Shown here one piece after another: positions 24,594 through 64,000 of a DNA stretch of 64,000 bases. Numbering within the stretch: the first letter of the stretch is position 1; each line of letters starts with the position of its first letter. The notes beneath the pieces are model-generated. The model searched no databases, was not told the origin of the DNA, and saw only the letters and a list, made by a program, of their open reading frames with translations. Origin of the DNA: Candidatus Omnitrophota bacterium (GTDB taxonomy: Bacteria > Omnitrophota > Gorgyraeia > Zapsychrales > JANLHA01); NCBI GenBank assembly GCA_022711395.1, contig JAKLFA010000003.1, positions 290,509 through 354,508 of the forward strand, written 5' to 3'. The position numbers and the translations under genes were made by a program.

Positions 24594-24622
24594 TGACCGC
24601 CTTTCGGCGGTTTTCTTGTTTA
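24594..24622 (+). terminator. terminator/attenuator-like hairpin in the leader of the giant gene
   Basis: accgcc-tttc-ggcggt followed by TTTCTTGTTT. It lies about 90 nt downstream of the promoter and about 85 nt upstream of the likely start codon. Confidence 0.4.
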
Positions 24623-24705
24623 TACAGAACCTTCCGGCTAGCAAACTAACGTACAATCTGGACATAAAAAAGACCCTTTTTATGGACGACAGACTGGACA
24701 TAAAT

Positions 24706-27700
24706 ATGCAGGCCATTCGTGTCTCTGATGCTCAAAGCTCTGAGAACGAGGGAGTCTCTATATCTAATAATGTCCAGAATACATATGGCACGGAGCCTGA
24801 AAAAGCCTTCAAAAGCCGTTTTAAAGGCTGGCTTCGTTTAGTTGCCGCGATCGTTGTTTTTGTCTTTCTTCCGGAGCAGATCAGCTGGGCCATGAACTAC
24901 AATCCGGCGGTCCTCTGGAGCGCTCAGCCGATCTCCATGACCGGCATGCCGATCGCCTCGCAGGCACCGGCGCTGGAGCTTCAGCTGCCGCAGCGGGAAG
25001 CGGCAGAAATGCTGGCGACCAATGTCCAGAGCCTTTTAAGCCGCGCCGCTATGGAAGGCAACCGCAATCTGGATATCCAGATCGCCTCTCCGAACCAAAA
25101 AGAATTCCGTGACATTGACGGTTTGCGTATTTCGGCCAAAACGTCTTTAAGCCCCGAAAAGATCCAGGAAGTCGCTCAATGGCTTCGCAAGCCTGGCATC
25201 CATCCGTTGAACTGCGGCGTTTTCGCCCTTCATGATTTCTTGAAATTAAGCAAAATGCCGATCTCCCTGGAACAGGCGGCTCTTTCGACCCTGTCGGTCG
25301 ACCTTCTTACAGACATTGTCAAGCCCGGAGACCCGACGCTTAAAACGTCCCTTTACGCGATCGATAAGGTCATCTCGCTCTATCAGCTCGATCACGCGGT
25401 CATTAAACTGGAACCGCAAGATATCCTAAAATTGAATGTTCCGTTCATCGCCAATTTCGGACAAGAACACTTTGTGACCGTCACGGCGATCGATGACAAA
25501 GGTGTCCACGTTCAGGACACCGGCGTTGAGCGGATCATGTCTCAGGAAGACTTCTTAAAAGACCTGAGCGGATATGTCTTGATCTTAAAGAAGAATATCC
25601 CGATCTCTGTTTCTTACCAAAATGTTGATGATGTCGAAAAAGCTTTCGTCTGGGGCGACCGCTGGGTCGATCAGTCGGATGAATTGCCCGGTCTTTTGGG
25701 CGATGTCGGCGAAGCCTGGGCGCGCGCGGGGACGGACGTTGCTATCACGGTCGTTATATCGATCGTCACCTGGGGTTTCGGGACATGGTTAAACAGCCTT
25801 GCTGAGGCTGGAAAGATCGCCGGCATGCTGGCCAAGCTCGCCAGCGAGCTGGCCAAAATGGGCACGATCATTGCGGGCATCGCCGCGATCGGTATCGGTG
25901 AACTTGTTAATACCATTAATCAGATCGCGATCATGAACGGCTGGTGGGACGAGGATGTGGGCTTCGTCATGGGCATTGTCCTTTCTACGGCGCTGTCCGT
26001 CGGCTGCGGTATGCTGACGTCGGGCTTTGCCGGAGCTCTGGATTCTTCGGTCAAGGCCGGGACGAACGGGTTGACTGGCGCGGCGCTGGGCGGGGCTGCG
26101 TTCCGGGGATTGGGGACCGGGATCGGCAACGTGCCGGTGGTTTTTGCCCAACGAATGGCGCAGTCGCTGATCGTTGCTTTTCCAAAGGCTTATCTTGCTA
26201 GAGAATTAGATAAAATTATAGACATTGATGATCCTATTTTAAAACAGGCCGCGGTCGGCTTTCTTTCAAGCCTGGGAACACAGATCGGCCTGATGGGACT
26301 TTCGTTTAGTTTAGACCAGGTTGGTTTAGATTCTGTTAATTCATTCTTAGATCTAAAGGCTCCTGAATCTTTGGGAGAATTTTTAAAAGAAGCGGGTCTT
26401 TCGATTGGCCGAGGACTTGTTGGGAATGCGGCAAGCATCGGCTTGCGGTATTTATTTTTAGAAATCGATGATGAAACATTTGCGGCCGACACTCTTGTGT
26501 CCCAGGCTATTGGTCAGGTGGGACAAACCTTTGGAAACCTTTTATTTGATATTGTCAGTTCAGGATCCTTGCCGCAAATTTTAAGAGGGGATGTTAAGAA
26601 AGGAAATTTTGTAGGTGATGACGAGGTTGTTTCTGCCGGACTGTTTGCGCGAGATTCAAACGGCGATTTACAAGAAGCTTATAAGGATGATAAAAACAAT
26701 TATTACATTTTAGGAGAGAACGACCAGAAACAGCTTGTAGGAATAGATAAAATTGTTACCCGCGGGATCGGAGATTCGGGAGTTGTTGAAAGACCTGGAG
26801 ATCAGCTCGAAAGCTTCAGAGGCATAACAATAGATGGTTCTAATTATGCTATACGCAAGAGAGACGGACAGCTGGTCGATGCCAACGACCAAAGGAGCCG
26901 GTATTTTATATTAGATAAACAAGGCCGGCCGGCTTTTCTTAATGTTGACAGCGACGGAAAGGTCACGATCCCTACAGAAAGTTTTGCGCAACTTAAAGCA
27001 AAAGGATTAGATCCCGAAGGAAACTATTCTCTTAAGGAAGACGCTTTAGAAGGGGGATTGCCGCAGCTTCATTTGATGCAGAGGCAGGCCCTATCCTCCA
27101 GATTGCTGGCGGAAGCTGTGCAGGGATTGGTAGGCGTAGCGATCGCCTTTGGAATGGATCGGCTGGAAGATGCGGTGATTGATGAAGATGATGAAGGGCA
27201 AAAAGATAAATACCAGACCCTTGGTTTACGTTTGGTCGGATTTTTGGGAACATTGGTGCTGGCAGAAGGAGCTTCCGCGCTAGGCCGTTCCAGCGGCAGC
27301 GCAGACGGCGCCAGTTTGGAAGGCGGGAGCGTTTTGAGTGCTTTCGGGGACACTTTTTATAGAGGGGGAGCGACCTTTGCTTTACAGCTTGGCAATAATT
27401 TCTTAAGGGCAAACGGCACCATGCCGAGCGGATGGGAGTATGGAAAAGGAAGCTTTGATTCTATTGAACAAATGGTCCGTTTTTATGAGCAGGCCGGCGA
27501 GCGTGCGGGTTGGGGAATGGATTCTATTTCTAAAATCCGCGGTCTGCGTAAACAGCTTGATGAAAACGAAGATCTGACGGATGAACAAAAACATTATTAT
27601 TTCTTTATGGGAGTTTCGAACATAACCAAAAAGGCGAAAGATGAATGGGCCATTGATCAGGTCAATACCAACCTTGCCGGAGGTTTTGTCAACAATGACA

Positions 27701-60700: not shown

Positions 60701-63700
60701 TGGCGGCTGCTGACATGACCGGTGACGGCAATAACAATCCGCCAGCCCAGCCTGATGCAGAAGACACCAAACCGGCCAAGGCCCAAGATCCGGCTCCGGC
60801 TAAAGACACTAAGAAGCCGGTTGAGCCCAGCAAAGCTCCCGTGGCGCCGATTGCCACGATCGATGATGAGACGTTAGGAAAGGCCCTCACCAGCGGTATG
60901 CCGCTGCGCTCGGAAGAAATTTTTGCCAACTTCGAGCATCCGTATAATGTCCGGCTTTTCGCCGCGGCTTTAGCCCAGGCTGAAAGCAAAATGCAACATC
61001 AGATGGCCACCGATGACGGCAGCGGCTTGTTCGGCATGAGCGAAGAAGAGTGGTCTCAGGCCGTTCAATATATGCTCAACCATAAGTTGTTGGAACAGCC
61101 GTTGTCTTACGCGCATGTCTTAGACCCGAACGTGGCCGCTGAGGTCGCGATGGCTAAGTTGAACTATCAGTTCGAGCTTCTGAAGAGCAACCATATGGCT
61201 GACGGCAAGTCTCAGGAAGAGGTCCAGAGACTGGCCCTGGCTGCTTACAGGATGGGCATGGATGAAGTTGTCAAAGCCGGTAAAGTCCCAGCCGCGGCCA
61301 AGGCCTTTGTTGACCAGGTGATGGCTGATTATAAGCGTTCTGATGAGATGACACGCAAAGCCTACAACCTGGAAGTTGTTTACAACCTGCCTAAGACCAT
61401 GTCCGCCGCGCCGGTCTTTACGCCGTATACCAATGGCTTGGGCATTGTTGATGCTCTGGAAGGAAAACATGAAGAACATAAAGTCGGTCCGAAAACAGAA
61501 GTGTTGGAAGCCGTAAAGCAGAGCGCTGAAGATGCGGTGACCAGGTCTGTTCCGCAGAACGCGAAAGCGGAAGAAGACAGAACTGATGCAGCTCTTGCGC
61601 AAGAGAAGAAGTCTTCTGAAGATCCGCTTCTGCCGGCCCTTCCAGAAGGAGACGTTTCGCTCGACCCGACCAGCATGGTCCTGCCGCCCAAAGACGCGTT
61701 AGGGACAGAGTTGCCCACGCTTTCGATCGGGGAACCTGTTGAGGGGACAGGGATGTTCCGTCGCGTGCAGGTCAGCATTAAAGCGAAGGGCCTGGAAGAT
61801 GTTCAGGCTACAAAATATGGATATCAATCAGACGAGCATATTGACAGCAATTCTTTGAACGGGATCGGTCATAGCAATAACCGTCTGGTCAAAGATGTGA
61901 GCGTGGCCCTTATGGCGGAAACAGCCAATGCCTTGGGAGTGTCTTCAGGTGATTTGATTGTTATCCGTTTGAAGAATGGGCAAACGCTCCTGGGAAGATA
62001 TGATGACACCATTCCGTCATTGTATAAAGGGCACAGGGTTGACTTCTATACGCCATCGGGAGAGTTGTCTTTTGATGGGCAGAAGGTCGAGTTGTTTAGC
62101 TATAAACAGATCATGAGCGGCCTTTCTGCTGAAGATCAGACAACGATCAAGGCGGAAGCCGGCCTGCTTGCTTCGAAGACGAATGACACACAAGAAGCGG
62201 CCGTGGCCGGCCAGAGCAAGATATTGAGGAACATGAGCACGCAGGTCGAGCTGACGGCCGATCTGAGGGTCGAAACGATCGACGGCAAAAAGACCCTGGT
62301 CCTTGACCGCAGCTATTATGAATTGGGCGAGAACGAGTTGGCGAAAGTGTATCTGCCGCTGATGGAGAAATTGGGCGTTGACCGCATCGTGATCAAGGGC
62401 AAACAGCCGGTCGCTTATTTCATGGAAGACGGCAAACTGAACACCAAGCGCTTTATGCAGACAGCGGCTCACGGCCAGACCTACCGCGAAAGCGGATATT
62501 ACGGCACGGCGGTCGATACCAAGAGCTGGATCGTGACGGTTCAGGTTCCGTTCGCCTCGCCGGTCCGCACGCCGGTTGCCGGTAACGTGGCCGCGGTCGC
62601 CTTGACAGCGGACGGCTGGAAAGTCACGGTCCAGGCCGAGAACAAGATTGAGACGATCTTCACGCACCTGGGCGAAACAGCGGTCAAGGCGGGCGAAACA
62701 TTGGCAGCGGGCGATCTGATCGGTCTGGCGGGCGAATTCAAGAGCAAGGATGCGAAAGAATATCATTTCCGTATCCAGGTCAAAGAAGACGGCAAGGAGG
62801 TCAACCTTTTGAAGAAAAATGACGGCGCCTCAACGATCGAAGGCGTTCGTCAGGCCTTTGTGAAGAATTTCAACCTCGATCAGGCGGAAGTCGATTTCTA
62901 TACCGGCAAGCTCGAAACGCATGAAGAGCGTAAGACAGAAGCGGACAGCGCCATCGCCGATAACAATGCCCATGTTGAAAAAGGCAAGCTCGAGATCGAG
63001 AAGCAAAAAATCGCTGTTGAGCAGGCCAACGATCCGGAACAGATCCGCCGCAGAGAACAGAGCGCGATCGGCTTCTACTTGTTCGGCAAGCGCGATTGGG
63101 ATGTGGCGAATCCTTATGGCAACGCGAACGCCAGCCGCAGCATGACCGACGCCTTATACGGCACGCCGGCCAATGAGGGCGGTTTCTGGTTCGGGGTCGG
63201 GTTCAATTCGATCTATTCAACGGGCGTCGGCGGTCCGGTCCTCACCCTGGGCGACAACAGCTTCTCACTCGATATTTCCGGCGGCGTGAACAATCAATTC
63301 TTAGGCACATGGGGACAGCTGGCTGGCGATGTGTTTGGGGCTGAAGATGTTCTTTCTAAGGGTCCGGCTGCTACAGCGTTGTTTGGCATTTCATTAACCG
63401 ATAATCTTATTAAGTTGCGCAATACATATGAGGATATTTCACACCGCGCCAATCAGTATGGCTATACTGAATTTTTTGATCAGGGCTGGATCTTCAACAA
63501 ACCTTGGAAGTTGGCGCTGGATACATCCAGGGTTGTTCCCAATCCGCGCCCGATCAACGGTGAATGGGTCAGCGATCCGTATCATCACGCGGACTTTACG
63601 CCCGCGCGCATATTAGAGTATCCCGGCAAGCTGGTCAAAGGCCTGCTGACACTGGATGCCTTTACATCTGATTTCTGGAGCAATAATCCGCTTTATAAGC

Positions 63701-64000
63701 CGTATGAGTCGATCTGGCATGAAGGCTGGATGCAGCGTGAGTGGAGCAAGCGCGCCTTTGAGGCAACGGATGTGAGCGAGTTCTCGATCTTCAGCCGTCT
63801 GTCCGGCGAACCGGAAGCCCTGACTTACGGAAAGGTCAGCCGTTTGGCCGACGGAACATTGTCCTACACGGAAAACATGAAAGAACTTCCGTTCTTAGGA
63901 TATGATGCCGCGACCGGTGATTATGCCAACCGCGAATTCTTTGATGTTTCCAGGAACTGGAGACGCAATGTTGATGCCGGAACGCTGAACATCGTTCCGT
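24706..64000 (+). CDS. giant multidomain protein, 5' complete and 3' truncated by the window edge (>=13,098 codons)
   Basis: Hand translation in frame 1 finds no stop from the upstream TGA at 24559-61 to nt 64000. The frame was verified at 27541, 30001, 36001, 42001, 48001, 54001, 60001 and 63961. All - strand ORFs in this span are short. Candidate starts are 24592 (inside the hairpin), 24682 and 24706. N-terminal TM anchor; domains listed separately. Confidence 0.85.
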   Translation, partial: MQAIRVSDAQSSENEGVSISNNVQNTYGTEPEKAFKSRFKGWLRLVAAIVVFVFLPEQISWAMNYNPAVLWSAQPISMTGMPIASQAPALELQLPQREAAEMLATNVQSLLSRAAMEGNRNLDIQIASPNQKEFRDIDGLRISAKTSLSPEKIQEVAQWLRKPGIHPLNCGVFALHDFLKLSKMPISLEQAALSTLSVDLLTDIVKPGDPTLKTSLYAIDKVISLYQLDHAVIKLEPQDILKLNVPFIANFGQEHFVTVTAIDDKGVHVQDTGVERIMSQEDFLKDLSGYVLILKKNIPISVSYQNVDDVEKAFVWGDRWVDQSDELPGLLGDVGEAWARAGTDVAITVVISIVTWGFGTWLNSLAEAGKIAGMLAKLASELAKMGTIIAGIAAIGIGELVNTINQIAIMNGWWDEDVGFVMGIVLSTALSVGCGMLTSGFAGALDSSVKAGTNGLTGAALGGAAFRGLGTGIGNVPVVFAQRMAQSLIVAFPKAYLARELDKIIDIDDPILKQAAVGFLSSLGTQIGLMGLSFSLDQVGLDSVNSFLDLKAPESLGEFLKEAGLSIGRGLVGNAASIGLRYLFLEIDDETFAADTLVSQAIGQVGQTFGNLLFDIVSSGSLPQILRGDVKKGNFVGDDEVVSAGLFARDSNGDLQEAYKDDKNNYYILGENDQKQLVGIDKIVTRGIGDSGVVERPGDQLESFRGITIDGSNYAIRKRDGQLVDANDQRSRYFILDKQGRPAFLNVDSDGKVTIPTESFAQLKAKGLDPEGNYSLKEDALEGGLPQLHLMQRQALSSRLLAEAVQGLVGVAIAFGMDRLEDAVIDEDDEGQKDKYQTLGLRLVGFLGTLVLAEGASALGRSSGSADGASLEGGSVLSAFGDTFYRGGATFALQLGNNFLRANGTMPSGWEYGKGSFDSIEQMVRFYEQAGERAGWGMDSISKIRGLRKQLDENEDLTDEQKHYYFFMGVSNITKKAKDEWAIDQVNTNLAGGFVNNDMFIEGGIVTNIKSTLGMLLSKFQKPEITKDLLGFTYYRWALEKTGEVEIDGKTAKALEKLEGEAKQAGEEQSKKVDRYAYYLYKTSDVKIDTNIIAEETEVSIAGVGPAGWEIAKIQPGFGRVSFGMVLDDGLMKKLGISEGDIRDGLVKNENGDVDLAKTRDSLSPDTVVGIENLLRLFKEDKGLDQIFNTTVYLGEGKTDPRSVKMEYFRSAGEVSPWTAKIFKYNAPETKQSGGQVVEKSKTVYSLGFQPDYLNPKGAEEANPTWLIGRFNASAAVYGYDRTPGVKDEKEHILEFESAAGFRWASKLPGSIEQGLPLGEMGIAPAVKFGKMNANPRVLAVYGDKTYYARQGSQGGAFQAINDLVGSFISERSFRYDSIVGALDEGYVISTFEKWGEEPGVDKTGLVRLAGGGQQPSTLMIFSVNKDRKIEMDPQTLEIKEKEGVNALNGLGVLDLFTAGISPLEILRGNIATGSFSPEQMAAYEASWKKLDDKARQLVMKLGTDKKVLKELLDIVNSYIAQNGAASATPEGLEAFVNSKEEAKSAVGNHMGEVKDLLGLQQALEEVKKLNPLDAGQTRFARARMFLPAEDGTHPSATTASFFQQGVIDELTVEALHQYYVKESDNPTPPEVKFVKPGTSTVADAETLDSPFGVLPKYASLSESIAGGDIFYKDGQLADYTAIGTSGTIFNLDVSSGRAMAYTVDAARKINVPEAFDKRFKTEYAGDYKMQIFSNRSGVMAGEGSILNYGNNFGWTIGGLNDSEIKNAIAVHDGLNVRYFGTEGKEGSEVTFLQTRTFREYKPTADIERNATLTEIKDGKTEVVGLIHKMDTKVFELSSFEIGGGFRFSLEGKGSDFKDTSIAPLYRFATSDGATITVKLPDEPDARVLKADVSLDFSEKDDGTFLRLSNLRGDYDVKAEAAGNNSVEFRKGQNLVIPIISALGRATIREQEKTVDPALIGEIAKKASTEQQPIDASQVVASHFVSAEFMDKTAAPGASAVLVEAKAGNDGKKQFVLYVLEAENEAEPKDLGPVQVMVSLDEFLQRGKIALGEGEKQQPVVFSTASIKDANGNVITGLTAETARTALESAAKKDPSRAVFVEQVLVLSSEDEESKKMVLAQFPEGTQAGILGKTLFLTPEALQDLANVSFSQPLNPSQIVEVSAADGSSRKVLSDPSLSAEDAIFAAGVIQQQLVSTAKVEDAGFFSKFTHIGIVEDDQIMGGQIAISFEGDVALITKSGLAKIKEAQETGESFLGLLDRGRINSEDQNFQNLGFVGTLAKADPLAEITFENGGKANVIAVDFQKGKIPEVLEARDENGTLIGQALVEKAEPRLSYLYNPLQQGYQEDIIAGFDMSGRLFVPSTMPVSIFKEVQETALPAGAPEAILKEKGLLPMTSRSLSGFSGIIDFNQDGQFRIHAGSRGINEAIQIMLTKGTPESKTDWLVTTLKQTSVDYFNDSGIKSLSESFEQKLSQAFSSNNWVAVDNEAKITTFLEGTAKGRGLLRWHGEDLNLNGSSGTMFAKVSVIDANGQTKELKSKEVSYDHALAMEKGRTNQGDAWVPVSGRVAEAYVKANDVSDLPIDLKNIQIYKRPMSQETLDALVKLRKAVQRYQADKMFGDGVSAPQAEMDKIIEQAERLYGRVTPDTIVKTMLFGGAGINSSMVDVILNEHNASVFRDAAEKDGLAVQIQTDVHLSVLSRGLEGINAYSNVLLSGLDLTSDAGKAEFQKRIKDLRETLANNPRASAMIHLLRREDQAEAGLLNRAIQFVKVGPGGTGGLGSNIEDPAKFAALVLVAIYKLTEGKKDMMNKLDPAQNPAVAVINALYNSPKFDLAAVGSLFDEKLNGSDLGLTEEQKASAIKFLTDVGNSMRAEDDAETAFQFIVRNQDRQKILGSVEVLLGEKVSEELKQKIGIVTNFEGALDNGKVRRVVFGAFSDDTYKALADFGKQLRAVVNLSETFNDAGLTLSESKTLVAQVSALQEGGKAVSPADVVVQLFENSAYKNQMIKIFGALGIKDEEFLNAAVTTYHATQREAKENEFLKMANFMASAGPANIARIFADPNSATQATLKADGEGEALWIAFGKPQQSRLEVFMFALASGNTSAIGQILGEAKVSPEEITNIQIAALQFSKEAAANDFKPEIVQKAFKEKFLPSLSDKALQALTNRDTIDQIARFVNPEYDQKQLEVNFNPFLEGSVFSKGEPAGTDGITVARDDFAGVSSVLNSGAVTIKNGTFFVQEAGLKTTSPIYAPGVIGTLENVINYKEGLPVSASSINVKYSDMMTAKGTDWNVSYGLFALKAGQMEEGLYGPPVPVAATFGLEGIDKYQQDYLFVPQDFSIAEGVAVKLAKESGWSQTRFADGKTLNGQFTKVVLKDGFLSSAALYGEGSFWERVKKEKAGYSPRQATDMDFATFAMVEGETVKNDQGVEEKYTRYATPANVDKTLGYINEKSIPKDMGPDGKRSLEVMKAEGGRLVFALGATGADGKGYFTGILRPDFRRSGSLHLFSKDARIKPVYDKDGKVIKGSFDLSKAVTQFVEGTGDFNTKGLPKFLNALYDQFYAAEGVQRSVAVKDGLYAYGRIAHVVPQGKQAQENYSNISDAPEDVLVGQVFTEDGVKYFGAGDLGRFTDNAFVGLAKTGSFKVDPSQKTIPSWLLFEEKGLQVLGEGGQWLGVSKDTYNINIYQMALGQREDGSYAPLLTREQKVDRKTTWREVRVQGDDKEFEKANQELLDAKRLQLVFLKEKLSGMGDVVLERRQWEFSTMRKMNSTMACHGGGVSCERPAAIKELDRLEAQVRDLENQVGLLSAEFRPIISYGSNWGYLTDDNGNATRMEYFLENGELVGQFGAGESGRAVGMPIISYQKLISDPFNEIAKEGAENTLLGKLASGDIKTGDAVKLPNSIDLHAGDITHVVKLKGRLTRDQVGRDNTALYDLSGDFSVGIVIDGVDTYKGEIRARTTMDIPGTQILLPDPDSVLIDKRASIYNPLSDTKKFDIVKGADKKSFNSFLYAASEKEYQKKLKEMTVGLTAKAFSDAKYASQLLGKPLQEDWVGYPKLTYQEGKDLHAAIKKEAEAKTNQEWVQDANRAGYRLEFGMMDLDDQIAYMREDKNKGGLGMLLFSYDYEGGAAFLNFMNNPDPLVHAETNEERTAIRMAEIVYGANFDLDEKMDDFRVSREYEKALRKEERNDRYEFAAGHYEPWQLLNDDNNYQQLSAIRTPNSVTLKTGQKGGLLGWLGNRFKDDETFTAAELEANREQRIKEIHENSLKYKGQGWGPDDDDTSFSFMSGGRNFEFSLDDEYAKPAFYDLAYHGYDELGVHAQTIGTLGNMVAVTTTIDVASYAWLAVDVIVTVGTLGAATPATAASEAGRIAATQAAKKGLMFAAKKAIYTQLRNAGFRAATSHAMAKVIVQAGTRALIYAGINVGFTALISGGKADAGDYAKAAAWGVLFSRPWAGLGRMSAAGLVKSGMNKITLAALKNVRTGSTAAVQAVGQQIAASGAQIAATGGTTAGVWGQRVVSLGQFVNRHDKAIAYTGLAAILGTGTYFGVKSQKEKLGEFVKTHINISSIGGGLVVGGIAAGALWGRDKVMFAMKEGIKKFKDAFLYNIVKFDDIIQKSILSNSVGKVALGSIIGTGVAAAGGYGINSIFNNDSLDSRGYVASVGTLALAGLALYGAKKIPAPVLQNIKTRAVNVTKPLVAIAKENPKAARYVAVGAGAAGLSAYAEYQSYNQYMAKQKSLKPGESTSYTGYGRPTLAIASAFAAVLGGRKMSRFLAANPEALLISIYQTGVDARYDQNPAESSLLTNVFRSIVLSPGRAIVGSMAGEGGRKFLARRTYLEQEAIFESAQNNLGSLGAAGLSFATAYTRALFTWGTGAYQASAVLSPLDTIKEFADMSRKPKNIPQNTQEEFKLAHLAWMAGSIMGVKPGVKAANVNLKGLLPPGGLRQVLRRTNAAMPSWVFVNSAINIFAPSIFGEGTDEMPDRIKSTAYQSDNVARGAFGAALLYNAVLSPIVKGVSARYTRATQNWSTTTQTMVGGGLTVSGVAMHVLGTQWKARLESEYELLKAEEVALAKIKNRAPDFSKIPKKGVFANILANSGLLVQSVGTSILLKRLHPNTWTKDFKSYTNRQGTFFVGGETSLTARVTDRLFVRPGAFLTGTSLGVLSAASAVYGSKKLVVDHVISAFQARQNNEAEGGFLSHFAANYLEKSTPYLLRGREYSINKAVDLVAMAKALKVLDKDATFDEKQTIKDKTYSKMTNEALKEEAKALGMSETEVDKKLQANDRDAIVWAVIKGKVDRAMESYKVAGKDNEYSFNGELFSKNRDENYERRVGGYGTDLPIYLLEGLMVAATVKGIKEYRSKFAELKRNNDSVKGVSKGLDDYFAESGKLRQATDKFGQEHAFGTAAAWAGAGGVLWGGGELLERAGQGQKNQTMQEWGRAIQVLGKTGVAIGGAVALGGFGDRILQSSKLSFAGKMNSGAIMVGKMTAETASNLAFVMAPLSGVLEGVSWAANKAVPLAGSDMEKNFLKYTVAGFWDDTQVLAKDGKTWIDRGAVKYQGATSIFGVMGRAYSSGLFGYDVATGELKVASLSDIPTTPQKLLPLPESMGGSPTEEYKGLQGQMIGFSAGLTALRWMTPVLNNIKYADFGRRFQAMNHSFDKTFDIDLFKSNSKVGKMFERFPLHPSRMISGSIEEIGEQFAQIGLQMTPVGYVGPILRQFGVSPTAARSFSEQFNEIVQEIVLSGSKIGVKNSRYANQQVLQFLSNNAGRFSGSQGLENLKAGLRDAASADQLGDIRADEVDYVIENYEEIGFVDSYGVTMPARMVLAATNGIGADARGYGAEQARQALANFKALITQDIELQIDEQNRSVEQVANVLEAQAQQKGQSFNRQEFLASARSSGRLITSEKRAKILESYTKSLEALEKKDDLTVLDVAQKMDELKGSSANLQQFFTLAADRGGFDASSLQGVTYGEVAAFLHEGGFRGTQFAGVTQSDMRQQLFGQAGDVTGATIFRHGDLGAGGQQQLYAMLRGGTGMVAAHDVEMGDEIIIESMAHQPVSADAFGGTQPQAPPSATPAASASSASPTLNTTTPSSSPTPLDPSAPTPGTNASVTPSTPTTPSVSPAPATAQAPAPTSASAAAEAVAKLVERKPGDIAREKTLSSLSMGRAVQRVMKKAKDGKVELIGFLNATAQAVEIDVGSGEKVQLKSGEFLRAKDAAVFGYDASRLAGQTDKARVKSFGFDEAKPVALFEQEVETPGVTQINPMTGKQEVVSRDKLRTVRREVMTDAATGKRFIERKIADVEMTVGVEQAPLANVPQIEVRSTQEVTVEGDKVVVSPRKMTNTIHIVQPAASEEGVAPAAIDPQVQALDGARVEGNVVYSASNNTPVALIHDGYRSMQFVDATDAGYRIKGGDLFAEAVVQRLGLSRHLPSQDAEDAPDIIIPKAEFENALGRNRELSQADTRILGNVVYRNEAGEIHTDFVDPTGRKFVVLRGSDGASYIIERDESVGAYRVAANNTEARILLRRSGIKTRSEAGQDILISDAQMDQALLGNGKFHMAAEINSRLRNKQSQDPAADAQKLAQLTTELISYYHPNATVTPSVEKGTLVHTYSVPDGSGGHKTFRFLPTLEAEKGKSSEHYRESERVDTGFQALVAELTPFKPTEGVGVVGHEGRHVFDFRMRVQGGRRLGGSAMITGAVALPIRKGFVSSGKRNDLSDVQHTNIYLSSVQGAQKATELGEVRAYRSQLLAQVGQFLESADIEDHELAQEQAKDMLYFMKLARNISYKAEFGYRQALGIIRGGQLGQDFAITADPLNAQGSIVVVTYKDASGQVRKIQQPIDPRARDRISAKYAAQGITKTDDEVTKEAVIEIFESTVQEEQAQSARIEQAIVLLDQVGRDASQFNPLAFRVAFKGYSATSRGGNTREHLARVFDQAVDRERNFAGIGNEGIASDIQARRVLAEITSDSVRVDGGSSEFTRLTGRAADSNMILEYNAQTGRGVIYEKEGQKVIADAPVLGKDASGKTIVVERKDQVKKTGGKIFAFVSVGSSGSPKQIQDVRAKIDFDSTAKIEVVKAQQPATPAAPAGTSPAILVSAPAASASTPVPAVLTAQAALSQNTESYSADMARATPVEFAKYTLGRQASKGSTTAQKILAGEIPLQLSGTSAIVPAGSDAAETQPTPRAAINAAFRDSKPVNAELLAAYNAKSERPISVPQNYVQQGEFLVPSSGAVSSSTSAAVLSTPATEAALPALATPPDVGTAAPVGTLPVAPVLTPVAVTGMPLAADLDAMKTADKLARAHIDNIIADKPGSVEPAGTSAVDRQPQPRVSQGSRYSSGQGEVTGARTVDQAKVLDAAMSAVKPDSNQVIATRRADGTIVSIINPNTKTVEIAGVALQPGQEAVMAQEPQTQEYKAIKVERRQSEGQTQTVVSEPVTIGAIQLERGDIVEYAKTGEVRILDKAKPQMVKAEVAGQVRSDIEPDAVKQVEVQKTFGDLKVVKADVAVATGESKTLYVQPTETVQKVFPDRKADESGNVRLSEQEIKTVFSLENTGVTNIEKTRRDLNQAVVAKAEGRGEVKTLTAAPKVYQQAVEAARQDLQGQLMIAQAKAQDSKGEDERARFETQARQIQSELDLLRDENVVVLDTPQTQVQTYRTEAQAEQLKPEQAVAVERVLNERVEGGFVDNTGRVVVFADTAERNFDYAVKTEQANLIQDSVKARVAETVKHEVAAAANQYSTDAANIEAARTRIADLGLPTQASLTGREGDKTEVMDASSVTAMLSGQKHEVRPFDRRREVAPRNWEVVFPETVFKAQNISFQEEKLISASRARESFVHGFLLNQPQLEVESAISRVLKKPVNLDDVSDRITLSYFDEGTNKDVFKVTMTAQNGEQFTFKLAHKQPKKGGDISPRETVNLSAVSDVSGAVPGFGGRYEYNGRAFYIEEFIEGKTVRQINQQGGLTHAIREKSVKTILEVSKTLHDLGEAEDMPKDIHTGNVMIRDRDGSAVMVDIGNNYVPVGQGVQNLVRFYGYFGENKDKGSNEFIYQALLDAYGREDGLRYLQSNVDHIKAAMAYDQKTGREAGVTSPKKKQIREQRDEPALRTEDSLQVVQEMEDFIRRVSSSPSSDLVRGTNAAVIAPAVTYKVSPPQMDRPVLEKTFVSPQFVHDLKVLGVRDENISKVEIGQGVGGREKTFYPVTAGDQKVAVVVIGGGQENVDRSYEFQKLVSQKLLGVTQTPVSLQKYPGGVGVKVEELIPGPSLEIISRRLYERAAKPEVDEATRGKMIATAQALTRKSVMRYVRLWDQFGMTVDTDPSNVKFKASSEKRFGMPVIVDLDAPQEFDPSMPEEFTRSSKTASELIESIGDPFGNGTVSYDAVMDEYVAKAVRQGKTVEAGKQEGVRVLREALAEFKAKAAPTVGMNFTQIYTDQLTSYIDGDGLKNYEYVDHRIERMNLPVMSETEAVRTAARDQLEMIKTRQTLASAGTNSAVLSEAPRSALAAAVDLKTVLPVNAETRRPELKVVSSDKNYVIVASEPKESVVPGRMQSHFNVYATDAQGKVEMSNGEPRVIGDFKLSSSMQNGRPVVEINEVAIPRAQDRGQGIYGAFVDQLKTTVPAGAEIKITDVRHAQTLADFAGAVSTELKARGDVAGLKAVKFMALRSELQQINDDFEQGKISLLEYTMAVEAPRKALVPLLHQYDQISELDQSLPSLTVMARKTDFGKRHQGLFDVETVSFTMPRNDGDILLHISGAAKGTASLAQTGTNAAVLSSGLGRTLAKAVLPVSLLFAGASFDTAEAVTDRTAAAYAGNNARFGVGSSEIVKARAEMDRGLDEILNIVQKRNGGNLIPGGVNAPVLSEILSKAVKPGEAPRFETVSSAIRNELTSRYQKFDSGKMSPAEVAELEQLEQDVAVFTTRLVTESSQYDATGRGEEYMALRNIVYGWPTVDGNIARRYVCEGCAAMNTLIGENEFGLREFRKLNVQMDAKGIVFGIDGEAGHSNNYLRTASGKTVLPVDQGVFGKDADHLKVDVWNDQGEHRVVQISDLSKPELKGFRGESANEIKARDEAELRLKTLTDQNNLSARLSNGRSMEQLSQVRREVQMIESSPELMKAIARHPHLQKNFDGLKKGVTGNIKITTYNEAVEQFNGLSRQLNGVGTLFENKDYKAAAGQYEKTATDIKKAIETLKANGFEQLQQASSDGQIVRGGSLISGLEKMLKVAEDNAAAARHNAGIGTGLTSRTPSSVVATGSRTEALKVNGLISRFNEASQAKNISELKQLLSEVETLSGTVNDKAMSEALGDIKTKAGQNITVLQFNDLAARFNVYANQRGQGAVKELEKIQADAEEALKTAPQTSPVRTKLDDMIRQTRQIIERRRSGASVDPQQASPLKEAEGQLASVNTVTPLIEATAELSPLPYETVTTYSVDHGVVVARGTPWMDTLAGQASDADRAGRNYENGSAQALGRPAPQTNAAVLAQETIKINYRYPKSISAGLGRASNFEGKAEISRKAHQANSGKGDFRQVHVIASDDADPAAQAEKMVYERQARKDQTPVYIFDAQDSQSPLKAVEITDKGQISYRKVQPSEIETGTVVVANPRLNTAAAFSPASETARNLVKKGNVIVDPDVFSVEHLDGQAAPETSVIGLSAAQTTKVHAASIPAVQAKAMKSVRIVLGVQDGVVLSREAFVDPRIRQYSPKEQQNLNDAIFVFAQQGTFDYVQIDDTDPSSMRTEIIRTADGMNILVIGAGYSRTEMRTLVENIGDEAAQDSGWAALAVKTASNWLTKIRPSVVLSDKTAGDIMVGRKNLTPGQAPIISAQASAALVGPKSGKIPSWSEAVSSLAAEQKAGVQGINVASGLKASTSSTQVNNAVLSSGNSGNEDGMDADQWVALMQAQSGISDTEIGDVSVVEGFIPSMHDGEGSLEENSREGEYYRMTRTGAGFKVSEIRPANDFKAVDEASDIVLFVRKDRPEVIAKYHLRTASGKEKPEAEISRAVKTVFESEQWKNRQPQSVRQAPASENRGANAAVVKEPSDIFLGGVPTRGETVLGLIGTVSSETQPVAGAEDSAPVQKHVINFFSSNEGKDSSAGAARNYPLETPITDTLQSEIRDLEHEFDQAQVSAQPAEVQETAYRKLVAAKALLLREYETRLLNQVAKARNDDALQNATNPLEHDIRINGKTVLTLKNSEGILRGGSWYDQLAKQAQDPEVLDVLDVAKNLDRQADHLSHFDGQGMSVSAIRGEISSLAGQLNWLKVRLSASDRSDRAVARAQRSVRQQTPRTTTQAVSALQRPSKVGSVIVGIATSTKNPMDTEAWRPFLEGKIKAGDQAAIAEYVALFLSGDANWVEFRRLLEAGAIETGEIWAPVLELVYAKEAELAAQGAVNETEDANAAVLGGSFWVRGAQSLLVAGMLAQGISGFNAGAAEAIADSVKQEMAADARLRDELHRAMAEFDRIEKKYTLKREFKPGLHMIGDFDDIRPTVILIHGGFSRPDAFERFAPYFREKFNIVIFAHDSAERLTRTGELFRADYERLLKGTSSKKIVVTHSFGSTAFMRAMLDASPEFKAELKTAKVFMLSPAFFGSARVGMGGSWFVQGQLWLGSLGGAFDFLEATRRQGQYHDPDGKTTAELYKRYQEFKALFNDEVEVIALTNDSHAPKRQESVLGQRYQQIVVEGGALLPAETDVGHSEILRRRDVVETIINKVSGGASTETNPAVLSRDFEWPALPQNESQLRSQLKESFARSWNPVRGTPRDALRIYRVNGRFFVKAPLAAHLILGKELALNAFGRHFIPTTALVASVDSLKYGVVDQYAANDPGAPVVYVQPVVQPFVDVVQDEFGFQHAVAGQGILNAEPAQSIARIDFYFEILEDMLKVGLSNADATIAQVGVAENNRTYFFDIERFREVKPQLGDAQDVQVNTLLAIDARNRELLAEAGVGKEILSHYDLRSKAFFKQDTLDKLWQAEMNLRQPVSSLFDYAKDVASRFTPSLTKEEFKQNVALPELGEAVNASAMRGKAAPVAGDSALTNSAVLPGADDSALPELPQPDINPAVLPDTSTPLPIQLNPGMLPVYILGKADTNVPDPIGQGSERDSKQSPVVPVSGSQLPLPLIPADGGTPGPGTGTGSKANSTAFVVLARSILPASKQEVRAAPNNLDQTQGDFEITDIRMASRKNWTGTGLSPTAWVSADHSTVVQAEGAVEWIGLGVGTVVEGVVFDNVANLLSNTGLSRVALNEGEADAWSVRLGANFTQEVAGSVVEVEAAVEGVTDGSNSAVLGGVTTDKGETEARSVRYGAENVQRTGIVISSRSSRRGNRSLKGHDTEARGILVAAIQPWALLEAGEGILDVVSGLGTKILASVVAVGSKPVVTGVKQGSQSAGSRDRTEHSSPLAMPEVLGVRIDSSYSVSRRSRNQNAGRSNSKAFGRAVNRLARTIRGIIGTVVRSRRNRSVEHNSRGSDSSAEGESADSDADADAEDSRSVRTISGSYDVEGSRSVISSVSADQSERLVQNAVQGVRELQNVSAGSNAAVVAEGQVNSADADDQGVRSVGTKDVEGNRSVISSVSADQSERLVQNAVQGVRELQNMTAGSDRAVSAITDDHGVEGNRLLNAGAVYSVGTSQLERADSDSPELREEERAAQAQDVSTTSIPAATTTGTGFDGNAKRSQFWASVRMAGFKTEARIILTRMTGALSTFILAILKGAQSIRAPNFVNLTASINFMKSLIKGGLSIVRTAYDQASSFIKGGSSWYSLTHNQMSNSSISLKSLSHAARSAQGETEQPVRPSFTLSSMNTNASTLATGSEEPGKSSNQEQADSLETSSTMPTQTSASRATARTSTSRLSIRDHVYSTGLWLLLGIVLSAYMSGMHILVIVAIASVWLGISARIYQGTSLSQNKGKGLLTRIVENTVLKNTILWFMIFFYGFAGNAMGASMKAEDRDAGYKAPNVVNVENWTGHQSGMSLSGTTLWMGDRANDQGILRLAHAMAQQNRGPAKVVAAADMTGDGNNNPPAQPDAEDTKPAKAQDPAPAKDTKKPVEPSKAPVAPIATIDDETLGKALTSGMPLRSEEIFANFEHPYNVRLFAAALAQAESKMQHQMATDDGSGLFGMSEEEWSQAVQYMLNHKLLEQPLSYAHVLDPNVAAEVAMAKLNYQFELLKSNHMADGKSQEEVQRLALAAYRMGMDEVVKAGKVPAAAKAFVDQVMADYKRSDEMTRKAYNLEVVYNLPKTMSAAPVFTPYTNGLGIVDALEGKHEEHKVGPKTEVLEAVKQSAEDAVTRSVPQNAKAEEDRTDAALAQEKKSSEDPLLPALPEGDVSLDPTSMVLPPKDALGTELPTLSIGEPVEGTGMFRRVQVSIKAKGLEDVQATKYGYQSDEHIDSNSLNGIGHSNNRLVKDVSVALMAETANALGVSSGDLIVIRLKNGQTLLGRYDDTIPSLYKGHRVDFYTPSGELSFDGQKVELFSYKQIMSGLSAEDQTTIKAEAGLLASKTNDTQEAAVAGQSKILRNMSTQVELTADLRVETIDGKKTLVLDRSYYELGENELAKVYLPLMEKLGVDRIVIKGKQPVAYFMEDGKLNTKRFMQTAAHGQTYRESGYYGTAVDTKSWIVTVQVPFASPVRTPVAGNVAAVALTADGWKVTVQAENKIETIFTHLGETAVKAGETLAAGDLIGLAGEFKSKDAKEYHFRIQVKEDGKEVNLLKKNDGASTIEGVRQAFVKNFNLDQAEVDFYTGKLETHEERKTEADSAIADNNAHVEKGKLEIEKQKIAVEQANDPEQIRRREQSAIGFYLFGKRDWDVANPYGNANASRSMTDALYGTPANEGGFWFGVGFNSIYSTGVGGPVLTLGDNSFSLDISGGVNNQFLGTWGQLAGDVFGAEDVLSKGPAATALFGISLTDNLIKLRNTYEDISHRANQYGYTEFFDQGWIFNKPWKLALDTSRVVPNPRPINGEWVSDPYHHADFTPARILEYPGKLVKGLLTLDAFTSDFWSNNPLYKPYESIWHEGWMQREWSKRAFEATDVSEFSIFSRLSGEPEALTYGKVSRLADGTLSYTENMKELPFLGYDAATGDYANREFFDVSRNWRRNVDAGTLNIVP
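25180..25600 (+). other. domain: C39-like papain-fold cysteine peptidase in giant protein
   Basis: HPLNCGVFALHDFL (Cys) ... 85 aa ... EHFVTVTAIDDKGVHVQDTG (His, then Asp). The spacing and motif context match the bacteriocin-processing peptidase fold. Confidence 0.55.
48270..48960 (+). other. domain: protein-kinase-like fold 1 in giant protein
   Basis: FKVTMTAQNGEQFTFKL (Lys), catalytic-loop-like DIHTGNVMI, and DFG-like VMVDIGNN. Confidence 0.4.
49290..49790 (+). other. domain: protein-kinase-like fold 2 in giant protein
   Basis: Glycine-rich VVVIGGGQENV, then DTDPSNVKF (HGD-like loop), then VIVDLD. Confidence 0.35.
56100..56840 (+). other. domain: alpha/beta-hydrolase (lipase/esterase-like) in giant protein
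   Basis: Oxyanion motif VILIHGG, nucleophile elbow VTHSFGS, and downstream Asp (TNDSHAP) and His (TDVGHSEIL). Confidence 0.6.
59180..59480 (+). repeat. tandem direct duplication (~201-nt period, 2 copies, core ~85 nt essentially identical) inside the giant ORF
   Basis: cgttctgtcatcagttcagtaagtgcggatcaatccgaaagattggtccaaaatgcagttcagggagtgcgagaactgcagaat occurs at about 59194 and about 59395. It encodes RSVISSVSADQSERLVQNAVQGVRELQN twice. Confidence 0.85.
60265..60510 (+). other. two internal transmembrane helices about 11.85 k residues into the giant protein
   Basis: GLWLLLGIVLSAYMSGMHILVIVAIASVWLGI and ILWFMIFFYGFAGNAMGA. Confidence 0.5.
60950..61340 (+). other. domain: lytic transglycosylase (SLT, lysozyme-like) in giant protein
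   Basis: AQAESKMQHQMATDDGSGLFGMSEEEW (ES...GLMQ-like), LDPNVAAEVAMAKLNY, and ALAAYRMGMDEV (AYNAG-like). Confidence 0.65.
62470..62790 (+). other. domain: degenerate M23/LytM-like beta-barrel in giant protein
   Basis: YGTAVDTKSWIVTVQVPFASPVRTPVAGNVAAV...FTHLGETAVKAGETLAAGDLIGLAGEF...EYHFRIQV. The topology is M23-like, but the HxxxD and HxH metal ligands are replaced (Y...D, YHF). Confidence 0.35.

Follow-up and report, generated by a model that had tools for sequence, protein, structure and literature searches.

[quoted passage not shown] As published, these genes encode an N-terminal C39 domain and follow a secretion locus whose more than 10 genes include gspD/E/F, rcpC, one for a Rotamase_2 PPIase, and small genes with class-III signals, and the C39-only architecture forms the largest cluster in a 916-protein catalogue (Nielsen and Lui 2026, 10.64898/2026.06.07.730766). 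West-Roberts 2023 use the term 'giant' for proteins of at least 30,000 aa; their description allows S8 as well as C39 for the N-terminal peptidase and includes numerous transmembrane regions, with genes for PilZ proteins and for solute-binding proteins or glycosidases downstream. Whether the products act as one chain or as many cut products is a question of the field. West-Roberts 2023 (bioRxiv 10.1101/2023.11.21.568195) favour cleavage and describe the cleavage points as unknown, and cleavage or junction motifs are not mentioned by Nielsen and Lui 2026 (bioRxiv 10.64898/2026.06.07.730766).

The window analysed here, a stretch of 64,000 nt of Omnitrophota DNA, contains the beginning of such a gene (Table 1), and its arrangement is the published one (West-Roberts 2023, Seymour 2023, Nielsen and Lui 2026). 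Like other giant genes of the same phylum, such as the 39,678-aa ORF of Velamenicoccus archaeovorus LiM (10.1101/2023.11.21.568195; PMC10066038), it encodes a poorly conserved protein with few annotated domains, an N-terminal C39 peptidase beside an N-terminal hydrophobic segment, and hydrophobic clusters along its length, and it lies directly after a Tad/T2SS-like locus near the replication origin. The shared content of this locus comprises rcpC, a secretin, an ATPase, two GspF/TadBC proteins, class-III-signal pilins, and a Rotamase_2 PPIase. There are also differences. The gene begins ~30 kb after dnaA and the replication origin, with dnaA, dnaN, gyrB, and gyrA just upstream, compared with ~100 kb from dnaA in three curated published genomes. 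The divergent SecA_DEAD domain reported in 'most' giant proteins (West-Roberts 2023) was not detected here in 13,106 aa by Pfam, with an E limit of 0.01 for the whole length and of 1 for aa 5,800-13,106; such a domain could be located past the window end or have diverged beyond detection. In addition, the cell-wall-related domain here is a degenerate LytM domain only.

The protein fits neither the 'Archaeovorin' type, with its glycosyltransferases, methyltransferases, glycoside hydrolases, NUDIX domains, and HEAT repeats, nor the 'Dockerin' type, with its dockerin, TSP3, or EF-hand arrays, because none of these domains was detected in the 13,106 aa available, where Pfam returned no glycosidase, HEAT, glycosyltransferase, or dockerin domain; furthermore, the protein is non-repetitive. 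Compared by description, it resembles the PF03412-only cluster of 24 proteins (Nielsen and Lui 2026) in its length of at least 10,000 aa, its main Pfam domain (C39), its Tad/T2SS flanks, and its sequence-unique body, and differs in having additional Abhydrolase_6 and M23 matches.

Taken together, the results are best explained, with a probability of roughly 85%, by a single giant, Tad-linked Omnitrophota gene, whose product has a conserved C39 head and a fast-evolving body and would act at the cell surface. Such an ORF is ordinary for the phylum; the locus adds a well-supported, origin-proximal, Tad-linked example from four concordant assemblies. What is new is a recurrent junction peptide, which bears on the question of one chain versus many cut products.

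Table 1. Features of the giant gene and its upstream region (nt, window positions; aa, residues of the giant ORF)
Feature	aa	nt	Strand	Evidence
Tad/Flp pilus-like operon		4735..24099	+	Pfam matches; Flp-type N-termini; conserved order
Conserved 5' leader of giant gene		24470..24681	+	Identity to relative L001; fold score
Giant ORF		24682..64000	+	13,106 codons in window; runs off window end
Predicted membrane anchor	53-71	24838..24894	+	Kyte-Doolittle peak 1.89; K/R-rich stretch precedes
Invariant motif F..PEQISWA.NYNP.VLW	62-79	24865..24918	+	15-sequence alignment
Peptidase C39 domain	~150-330	25129..25671	+	Pfam PF03412, 42.2 bits (cut-off 22)
Long, partly hydrophobic helices after C39	342-620	25705..26541	+	Hydropathy peaks; AF2, low pLDDT
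~18 weakly hydrophobic Gly/Ala-rich segments	4,346-5,519	37717..41238	+	Kyte-Doolittle scan, threshold 1.15
Protein-kinase-like module (tentative)	~7,925-8,054	48454..48843	+	Three weak concordant matches; D-I-H-T-G-N and V-D-I-G motifs
Array of 12 junction motifs N-[ASPN]-A-V-[LIV]		49120..59307	+	Enrichment test
Alpha/beta-hydrolase module	~10,440-10,725	55999..56856	+	Pfam Abhydrolase_6, 26.9 bits (cut-off 26.3)
Sole internal duplication	~11,460-11,607	59169..59483	+	123 nt twice, 93% identical
Strongly hydrophobic segments	11,869-11,943	60286..60510	+	Kyte-Doolittle peak 2.15
Degenerate M23/LytM domain	~12,620-12,708	62539..62805	+	Pfam PF01551, 42.6 bits

A 39-kb open frame is the start of a single gene

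A scan for stop codons found none in frame 1 (codon starts at 1 mod 3) from 24,586 to 64,000, a span of 39,415 nt or 13,138 sense codons; the second-longest open stretch within the window is 4,446 nt. The chance probability of a frame free of stops over this distance is ~1e-293, assuming ~5% stops per codon. In all 1.5-kb intervals, the other five frames contain 15-46 stops per 500 codons versus none in frame 1. The coding signal is likewise continuous: the proportion of purines at codon position 1 is 0.60-0.70 throughout, matching the upstream genes, and GC1 exceeds GC2 along the whole length, as it does in those genes. Together with the concordance of four assemblies and the conservation of both the N-terminal head and the operon position, these findings uphold the claim of a preliminary description that this region is occupied by one real + strand gene, at least 13,000 codons long, which is still open at 64,000 and continues past the window. 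Thus, the 39-kb open frame is the genuine start of a single giant gene.

Several details of that description required correction. The in-frame stop preceding the gene is a TAA at 24,583-24,585, rather than a TGA located 24 nt away at 24,559, where the codon is CTG, and the gene starts at the ATG at 24,682, 24 nt from the proposed 24,706. This ATG is also the called start in the three other assemblies and is backed by an N-terminus, MD[DEN]R[LM]D, common to 14 homologues; amino acids are numbered from it here. The resulting 13,106 stop-free codons, a lower bound given that the gene end is beyond the window, exceed the 10,000 aa at which West-Roberts 2023 count a protein as 'large'. Off-frame and antisense ORFs within the gene had been given as 165 aa or less, which is correct for all but one, an antisense ORF of 249 aa at 62,017-62,766. 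The giant ORF is missing from the original ORF track, probably not through a length filter, as had been supposed, but because it runs off the window end, since the ORF lister used here omits ORFs that run off the ends of their source and does not report this one. Finally, the view that genes of this size are extremely rare holds for bacteria generally but not for the Omnitrophota, given the frequency in complete genomes cited above.

The window belongs to the 538-kb JGI contig Ga0116241_10000028, with the giant-gene part at record positions ~315,190-354,508. Three other assemblies (JGI 3300009771, ENA ERZ795055, and NCBI GCA_035452745.1) are base-identical to it over 13,218-34,099, so that four assemblies from different samples show 0 mismatches across 20.9 kb, 9.4 kb of which is giant gene, and in the other three, the gene is called open for 12,923-12,960 aa, to the contig ends. 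Such agreement argues strongly against the long frame being an assembly artefact, that is, an in-frame chimera of genes from several organisms or a collapsed or mis-joined region. Two observations would be compatible with an artefact: GC3 shifts in blocks along the gene (0.65, then 0.39-0.48, 0.54-0.64, 0.39-0.44, and 0.59-0.67), and all three 64-kb assemblies end inside the gene within 110 nt of one another, at window ~63,451-63,560. However, the upstream genes on the same contig are similarly heterogeneous in GC3 (0.42-0.68), and there are no long repeats that could cause mis-joins. Furthermore, a relative in an Omnitrophota MAG (JBBRHV010000001.1; L001 in Table 1) runs colinear with 4,422 aa of the window (43-48% identity overall, 56% in the best segment), and in 50 other loci a giant ORF starts at the same operon position. 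An artefact is therefore scarcely credible; the GC3 mosaic and the shared assembly break could instead reflect local strain variation or an unresolved region.

The Tad locus and the conserved head

The operon upstream encodes, in order, a Rotamase_2 PPIase and RcpC, then a secretin that carries a TonB_C domain at its C-terminus, a fusion of a TadZ-like ParA with the TadA (T2SSE) ATPase, a DUF192 protein, and three unknown proteins (560, 525, and 1,466 aa). Seven Flp-like pilins with N-termini of the type [GA]-Q-[ST]-T-x-E-Y and two T2SSF proteins (TadB and TadC) follow, and the giant gene is the terminal gene. RcpC, the RcpA secretin, TadZ, TadA, TadB, TadC, and Flp pilins are thus all present in the window. 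For the prepilin peptidase TadV, no A24 or TadV-like match was obtained among the window ORFs scanned, and its gene may be elsewhere in the genome. The order u525, u1474, u125, TadB, TadC, and giant gene is kept on one strand in ~30 related loci. A search with the pattern SWA[FMI]NY[ND]P revealed 60 metagenome loci that carry the head; wherever DNA upstream of the head is available, it carries TadB and TadC directly before the ORF, on the same strand, and in 50 of 51 head-bearing loci, the ORF meets no stop before the DNA runs out, at up to 3,994 aa. Fragments of the giant gene are named Candidatus Omnitrophota proteins by NCBI.

Between the operon and the gene lies a leader that is 87% identical (core 92%) to that of the L001 relative, compared with 79-80% for TadB/TadC, 72% for the first 900 nt of the giant gene, and 55% for the remaining intergenic DNA, and its fold z-score is -3.5. 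A riboswitch was considered and rejected: the leader has no Rfam match, even at E <= 1, and a covariance model gave no significant match in 60 distant loci. Within the leader, 70 nt before the giant-gene start, the stretch 24,595-24,612 is a terminator-like hairpin, with a T run after it. A terminator at this position might suggest that the open frame does not yield one functional protein, being either a decaying or unexpressed relic or a source of several products from internal starts. However, stops would accumulate in a relic at ~5% per codon, and none is found in 13,138 codons, over which the codon-position bias is held throughout; in addition, the synonymous codon variation of the recurrent motif discussed below shows selection at the peptide level. 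It should also be noted that peptides of the V. archaeovorus giant ORF have been detected and are more abundant upon attachment to larger cells. Consequently, a relic or a set of separately initiated products is quite improbable.

Conservation within the giant protein is confined to its N-terminal head: in BLAST of 51 homologues, it stops at about aa 350-650, and the helix cluster is the end of the head. The head has a short, presumably cytoplasmic tail and a predicted membrane anchor, followed by the SWAxNYNPxVLW motif, the C39 domain, and the helices. The anchor is a helix in AF2, with low confidence, and F62, P64, Q66, S68, W69, A70, N72, Y73, P75, and W79 of the adjoining motif are invariant in 15 sequences. 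The C39 domain is modelled by AF2 with a pLDDT of 75-91, and by the positive-inside rule it is probably on the outer side of the anchor. Its catalytic C178, H263, and D279 are intact and invariant in 15 homologues, which argues for an active protease. In Foldseek searches, its best match is the double-glycine protease LahT150 (6mpz; E 1e-5, TM 0.70), followed by the peptidase domain of PCAT1 (4ry2). Thus, the papain-like fold and the Cys/His/Asp residues are shared with the C39 domains of the PCAT/AMS family, whereas the present domain is not fused to an ABC transporter; Pfam detected no ABC transporter domain in either the giant protein or the window. HlyB and 3zua are also among the Foldseek matches.

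By analogy with V. archaeovorus, and given the obligate synteny with Tad genes, the product may be a membrane-anchored surface or contact apparatus that works with the Tad machine. Such an apparatus would attach to, and act on, host or prey cells.

Modules of the body

Beyond the head, the body contains more hydrophobic clusters, an alpha/beta hydrolase, modules that resemble kinases, and a LytM domain in degenerate form. It is non-repetitive, fast-evolving, and almost devoid of detectable relatives. Pfam searches of module-sized pieces at E <= 1 returned nothing beyond C39, Abhydrolase_6, and M23, and searches of the whole protein against PDB sequences gave weak M23 matches only. For aa 8,097-9,173, no homologue besides its own fragment was found, and aa 10,000-11,199 yielded only 21 matches among 1.84 billion representatives (HMMER). 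The last 1,500 aa had no homologous protein at E <= 1e-10 in an index from which proteins this long seem to be absent, and the last 500 aa had no match in a scan of metagenome contigs, a collection that lacks the source contig. A repeat-scaffold adhesin was rejected, given that the protein is non-repetitive, with one small internal duplication only.

A hydropathy scan, used without a dedicated transmembrane predictor, identified five segments that pass a strict threshold and ~35 that pass a lenient one. On this basis, the Gly/Ala-rich segments may, tentatively, be membrane-embedded, and those at aa 11,869-11,943 are likely transmembrane helices ahead of the C-terminal part. The kinase-like assignment is tentative; the matches are to a PHROG Ser/Thr kinase (E 0.007), the LanKC kinase region (E 0.006), and the MAD6 kinase (E 0.017). 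The alpha/beta hydrolase looks active from its sequence, as the oxyanion HGG, the nucleophile HSFG, the Asp of NDSH, and the His of GHSE are kept across 13 aligned homologues.

The M23 domain is also matched in PHROG and NCBIfam, with SpoIIQ as the best match, and its PDB matches include SpoIIQ and DipM. Although the fold match is significant, the zinc and catalytic residues are replaced: when aligned to 5kqb and ShyA, the domain has Ser and Thr in place of the His and Asp of HxxxD, and Glu in place of the first His of HxH. The domain is therefore classed as a degenerate LytM rather than an active M23 domain. It shares the M23 fold with lost zinc ligands with the degenerate LytM factors SpoIIQ, EnvC, NlpD, and DipM, but here it is one module inside a giant protein. 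Since the sole peptidoglycan-related domain found lacks three zinc or catalytic residues, the case for cell-wall degradation is weaker than in the published model, and the C39-headed class need not carry an active cell-wall hydrolase in its first 13,000 aa. Motifs nearby had also suggested two domains that were then dropped: aa ~12,110-12,240 resembled an SLT-like lytic transglycosylase and aa ~12,400-12,520 an RlpA/DPBB-like domain, but Pfam, PHROGs, NCBIfam, and PDB confirmed neither. A single-sequence AF2 model of aa 12,051-13,106 has a mean pLDDT of 35.9.

A recurrent junction peptide

The peptide N-x-A-V-[LIV] occurs 13 times in the giant ORF, compared with ~0.2 expected, and its 4-mers and 5-mers rank top in an unbiased enrichment test of the ORF. 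The first copy falls inside the invariant head motif; the other 12 form an array starting at nt 49,120, 50,179, 51,013, 53,134, 54,322, 54,793, 55,888, 56,857, 57,799, 57,862, 58,531, and 59,293. These copies bound modules that are mostly 160-700 aa, although one pair is just 21 aa apart; the hydrolase, for example, lies between copies at aa 10,403 and 10,726. Codons of the motif differ synonymously between copies, which indicates selection at the peptide level and rules out a DNA-level recombination site. The motif is absent from 14 other proteins of the window, so a general sorting signal of the organism is not supported either. A literature search with the motif string gave no match, and the feature was not found in the papers searched.

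Given these findings, the N-x-A-V-[LIV] peptides may be candidate processing sites at module junctions. The body would then be a polyprotein, which the C39 domain would cut at the motif copies to release about a dozen enzymes or effectors, a proposal that is possible, if on balance unlikely. There is a parallel in the MARTX toxins of Vibrio, polyproteins with several effectors in which an internal cysteine protease domain cuts after Leu between the modules. The likeness is one of working principle: a very large secreted or surface protein with unrelated enzyme modules in series, a single cysteine protease, and a short recurring junction peptide that ends in Leu, usually with a small residue next. 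The protease is a C80 CPD in MARTX and a C39 domain here, RTX-type repeats are absent here, there is no homology, and cleavage here is putative.

Alternatively, the gene is real, but its product would remain uncut and serve as a surface 'coat' or adhesin anchored in the membrane. The motifs would then be structural linkers, docking strands, or recognition tags, and the C39 domain would either process another substrate or be a non-cleaving, chaperone-like C39-like domain, as in HlyB. V. archaeovorus has been proposed to wear its 39,678-aa protein as an extracellular coat, and C39-like domains can be non-proteolytic, as the structural matches to HlyB and 3zua recall. In addition, the motif contains no Gly-Gly and hence is not a double-glycine site of the kind used by PCAT/AMS C39 domains, and AF2 of the head placed the NYNPAVLW peptide with low confidence and not docked on the C39 domain or in its protease groove. 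Against an intact protein stand the invariance of the catalytic Cys, His, and Asp in 15 homologues, which argues for an active protease, the position of the motif at boundaries of domain-sized modules with unrelated folds, and its recurrence at junctions of other ORFs; West-Roberts 2023 likewise favour cleavage, albeit without identified sites. We give this alternative slightly less than an even chance.

If true, the polyprotein reading would supply the 'cleavage points' missing in West-Roberts 2023 and make the question of one chain versus many directly testable. The motif, which is statistically unambiguous and echoes the invariant peptide beside the protease, offers concrete candidate sites and also a way to divide giant proteins into modules before their structures are predicted. 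In an extended form, which is doubtful, the polyprotein would be cut by the invariant N-terminal C39 domain at N-x-A-V-[LIV] here and at D-x-A-x-L in other lineages; its products would include kinase-like, alpha/beta-hydrolase, LytM-like, and other proteins, some with Sec- or Tat-like signal peptides, and the invariant NYNPxVLW peptide of the protease would sit between the membrane anchor and the catalytic domain. Against processing, the motif shows no enrichment in 51 homologues over their first ~3,700 aa and, by sequence reading, is absent from P0037, another large Omnitrophota protein. In the Omnitrophota giant-ORF fragments P0031 and P0033, it does recur at junctions, and the variant D-x-A-x-L is present in P0017 in 17 copies, versus 1.6 expected.

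The open frame and its start

Frame 1 runs without a stop codon from 24,586 to the window end (39,415 nt, 13,138 codons), while the second-longest open stretch within the window is 4,446 nt. Counted in 1.5-kb slices, stops are absent from frame 1 and number 15-46 in the other five frames; if about 5% of codons are assumed to be stops, the probability that such a frame would be open by chance is ~1e-293. Furthermore, throughout the giant gene, purines make up 0.60-0.70 of the bases at codon position 1, and GC1 is higher than GC2, as is also observed in the upstream housekeeping genes. The giant gene is real.

In a preliminary description, it had been stated that no in-frame stop occurs from 24706 to 64000, and this has been borne out. 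However, both of the 5' landmarks given there require correction. Position 24,559, where an upstream TGA had been placed, reads CTG, and an in-frame TAA is found at 24,583-24,585. The start is not at 24706 but at the ATG at 24,682, which is also the called start in three other assemblies and gives an N-terminus, MD[DEN]R[LM]D, common to 14 homologues. From this ATG, the gene has at least 13,106 codons inside the window, as the frame is still open at the window end. It had also been proposed that all minus-strand and off-frame ORFs across the gene are 165 aa or shorter, which is correct in general but fails for one antisense ORF of 249 aa (62,017-62,766, minus strand), which lies within a high-GC3 part of the gene. 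This ORF and an AT-rich ORF of 107 aa in the TadC-giant gene intergenic region (24,165-24,488, minus strand), which is gene-called by some pipelines, have no Pfam match and are probably spurious. Finally, the absence of the giant gene from the ORF track is probably not due to a length filter, as had been supposed, but to the fact that the ORF lister omits ORFs running off the source.

It is very unlikely that the open frame is an artefact of assembly. There are 0 mismatches between the window and three other assemblies (JGI 3300009771, ENA ERZ795055, and NCBI GCA_035452745.1) over 13,218-34,099, the gene calls on these assemblies keep the gene open for 12,923-12,960 aa to the contig ends, and its sole repeat comprises two 123-nt copies, at 59,169 and 59,361. 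Against these observations stand two mild flags: the GC3 along the gene is mosaic, and the three independent 64-kb contigs all stop inside the gene at window positions ~63,451-63,560, a spread of ~110 nt. This latter region is crossed by the 538-kb contig Ga0116241_10000028 (JGI 3300010429; 538,084 bp), on which exact-protein matching placed the window, with window position 1 at about record position 290,509. The shared ends suggest variation among strains or a difficult stretch immediately downstream. As to the mosaic, GC3 is 0.65 for aa 1-500, 0.39-0.48 for aa 500-5,500, 0.54-0.64 for aa 5,500-11,000, 0.39-0.44 for aa 11,000-12,000, and 0.59-0.67 for aa 12,000-13,106, with boundaries at window positions ~26.2, 41.2, 57.7, and 60.7 kb; this pattern could arise from recombination or from modules that differ in origin.

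At another locus (L015, 10,001-22,907, on the 348-kb ENA contig 'contig_38025', which may be a long-read assembly), the giant-gene homologue consists of consecutive same-strand ORFs of 968, 1,943, 738, and at least 2,265 aa. Fragmentation of giant genes by indels has been described by West-Roberts et al. (10.1101/2023.11.21.568195), and the split homologue fits such a process.

A conserved head behind a Tad-like locus

Immediately upstream of the window lie dnaA, dnaN, gyrB, and gyrA and, past dnaA on the opposite strand, parAB and yidC, as seen at the L008 locus. Except for small, probably spurious ORFs, all window genes are on the plus strand, and the GC skew is positive throughout; given these features and the nearby dnaA, the giant gene is on the leading strand, ~30 kb from the origin. 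This is the replication origin with strand-biased genes, an arrangement that has been reported for curated Omnitrophota genomes.

Features of the Tad/Flp pilus-like operon, the leader, and the giant gene
Feature	Position	Strand	Remarks
Rotamase_2 PPIase, RcpC		+	first genes of the Tad/Flp pilus-like operon, upstream of the giant gene
Secretin with C-terminal TonB_C domain	6,637-8,352	+	unusual fusion in a Tad locus
TadZ-like ParA ATPase fused to TadA (T2SSE) ATPase	8,394-10,556	+	single 720-aa ORF; unusual fusion
DUF192 protein		+	after the TadZ-TadA fusion
Uncharacterised proteins of 560, 525, and 1,466 aa	11,304-12,986; 15,595-17,172; 17,489-21,889	+	no Pfam match
Seven small ORFs, 64-129 aa	13,402-15,589 and 21,931-22,308	+	Flp/class-III-signal N-termini
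TadB, TadC		+	end of the operon, just 5' of the giant gene
Leader (212 nt)	24,470-24,681		
Terminator-like hairpin in leader	24,595-24,612		
Motif N-[ASPN]-A-V-[LIV], copies 1-7	24,901; 49,120; 50,179; 51,013; 53,134; 54,322; 54,793	+	15 nt each
Motif N-[ASPN]-A-V-[LIV], copies 8-13	55,888; 56,857; 57,799; 57,862; 58,531; 59,293	+	15 nt each
M23 domain	62,539-62,805	+	

The positions of the 525-aa and 1,466-aa proteins are conserved in about 30 related loci, and the order u525, u1474, u125, TadB, TadC, giant gene, all on one strand, is kept wherever upstream DNA exists. The seven small ORFs share an N-terminal plan (a K/R-rich stretch, [GA]-Q-[ST]-T-x-E-Y, and a hydrophobic helix), and their predicted products make up a sizeable group of paralogous pilins or pseudopilins. 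No prepilin peptidase was recognised among the window ORFs scanned.

The leader of the giant gene is 87% identical (core, 92%) to that of L001, a relative in the Candidatus Omnitrophota MAG JBBRHV010000001.1; the corresponding values are 79-80% for TadB/TadC, 72% for the 5' end of the giant gene, and 55% for the remaining intergenic region. Its predicted fold is more stable than those of shuffled sequences (z-score, -3.5). The leader has no Rfam match, a covariance model of it gave no significant match at distant loci, and no covariation was found in the two sequences available. It may function as a regulatory 5' UTR or an attenuator.

Aligning the N-terminal 620 aa with 14 homologues reveals a conserved K/R-rich stretch followed by a transmembrane helix, and an invariant peptide, F..PEQISWA.NYNP.VLW. 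The C39 protease of the head is intact, with the catalytic residues C178, H263, and D279 conserved in this alignment; when modeled by AF2 with the same homologues, the domain has a pLDDT of 75-91, and Foldseek matches the model to the double-glycine protease LahT150 and the PCAT1 peptidase domain. A metagenome scan with the head alignment yielded 60 loci, and in 50 of 51 loci, the ORF begun by the head, up to 3,994 aa, runs on without a stop to where the available DNA ends. BLAST similarity among the family proteins vanishes past about aa 350-650. Thus, the family consists of a conserved head and a hypervariable giant body. The relative L001 is colinear with the giant protein over 4,422 aa (56% identity in the best segment, 43-48% overall), and fragments of the giant gene carry Omnitrophota protein names in NCBI.

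The giant gene belongs to an already known kind of Omnitrophota giant gene. In the published plan, an N-terminal C39 domain is preceded by a locus of >10 genes that includes gspD/E/F, rcpC, a Rotamase_2 PPIase, and genes with class-III signals, and the arrangement in the window matches this plan point by point. Proteins of >=10,000 aa are present in 94% of complete Omnitrophota genomes, and among 916 long Omnitrophota proteins, 'C39-only' is the largest architecture cluster (Nielsen and Lui 2026, 10.64898/2026.06.07.730766). The giant protein of the window can be assigned neither to the Archaeovorin type nor to the Dockerin type.

Modules of the body

The only Pfam matches of the giant protein are C39, Abhydrolase_6, and M23, and sequence searches of the PDB gave weak M23 matches only. 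When aa 10,000-11,199 were compared with 1.84 billion representatives by HMMER, 21 proteins were found, mostly alpha/beta hydrolases; for aa 8,097-9,173, there was no match beyond its own fragment. By these searches, the body is almost entirely without detectable relatives. A single-sequence AF2 model of the last 1,056 aa carried no usable information (pLDDT 36).

The alpha/beta-hydrolase module looks active, as judged from its residues: the oxyanion HG, the Ser nucleophile, the Asp, and the His are all kept across 13 homologues. In the M23 domain, whose top NCBIfam match is SpoIIQ, comparison with 5kqb and ShyA shows that three zinc or catalytic residues are lost: the His and Asp of HxxxD are replaced by Ser and Thr, respectively, and the first His of HxH by Glu. 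The domain appears to be a degenerate LytM that does not look active, and it probably serves in binding or as an activator, without catalysis, rather than as a cell-wall hydrolase. A further segment, aa ~7,925-8,054, is tentatively kinase-like, with three weak concordant kinase matches and the motifs D-I-H-T-G-N and V-D-I-G. A hydropathy scan points tentatively to hydrophobic clusters at aa 53-71, 352-542, 808-867, 4,346-5,519, and 11,694-11,943. SLT-like and DPBB-like domains were also considered in the body and were dropped after Pfam, PHROGs, NCBIfam, and the PDB gave no confirmation.

Junction peptides and a possible polyprotein

The motif N-[ASPN]-A-V-[LIV], exemplified by LAQTGTNAAVLSSGL and WAMNYNPAVLWSAQ, occurs 13 times in the giant protein vs about 0.2 expected. 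One copy (aa 74) is within the invariant head peptide. The remaining 12 are spread over aa 8,147-11,542, where they separate modules of mostly 160-700 aa (one pair is 21 aa apart); two copies bound the alpha/beta-hydrolase module exactly, and two precede stretches resembling Sec signal peptides. An unbiased k-mer test ranked NAAV first among 4-mers by enrichment, with NPAVL, NSAVL, TNAAV, and NAAVL as the four leading 5-mers. The codons of the motif differ synonymously, so it is the peptide that is under selection. No copy is found in the 14 other window proteins (6,668 aa in total) or, by reading of the sequence, in P0037, an unrelated Omnitrophota protein of 7,238 aa. Likewise, 51 homologues show no enrichment over their first ~3,700 aa, which matches the lack of the motif at aa 79-8,146 of the giant protein. 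Among other Omnitrophota ORF fragments, P0031 and P0033 (the latter the C-terminal end of an ORF open to the contig start) have ..QTNAAVL.. or ..GGTNAAVI.. where modules meet. In P0017, a fragment of 5,274 aa (≈ 15,822 nt) that spans almost the whole of its 15,824-bp contig, an analogous motif, D-x-A-x-L, is present in 17 copies vs 1.6 expected.

The synteny with a Tad-like machine is obligate, and the body is modular, with junction peptides under selection. From this anatomy, it can be postulated that the C39 domain cuts the junction peptides, and the body would then be a polyprotein. We consider this tentative, with a probability of little more than one in four. The MARTX toxins offer a functional likeness for a cut polyprotein, although no homology is claimed. 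In V. archaeovorus attached to Methanosaeta, the Tad complex and the giant ORF are expressed (Seymour 2023, PMC10066038); by analogy, the product of the giant gene would be a contact apparatus, anchored in the membrane, that acts on host or prey cells together with the Tad system. Support for the published 'cell-wall degradation' model is weak in this member, since the searches detected no active lytic domain.

West-Roberts et al. (10.1101/2023.11.21.568195) state that the cleavage points of giant proteins are unknown. The junction motif is unmentioned in both giant-gene papers, and a full-text search for motif strings was empty; of the features reported here, only this motif and the conserved leader could not be traced to a published description.

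Signal peptides of the Tat or lipoprotein type are also seen deep in the chain of other large proteins: in P0030, at aa 812-850, directly after D-A-A-M-I, and in P0022 and P0027, just before alpha/beta-hydrolase modules. Such predicted internal export signals may be general among these multi-module proteins.
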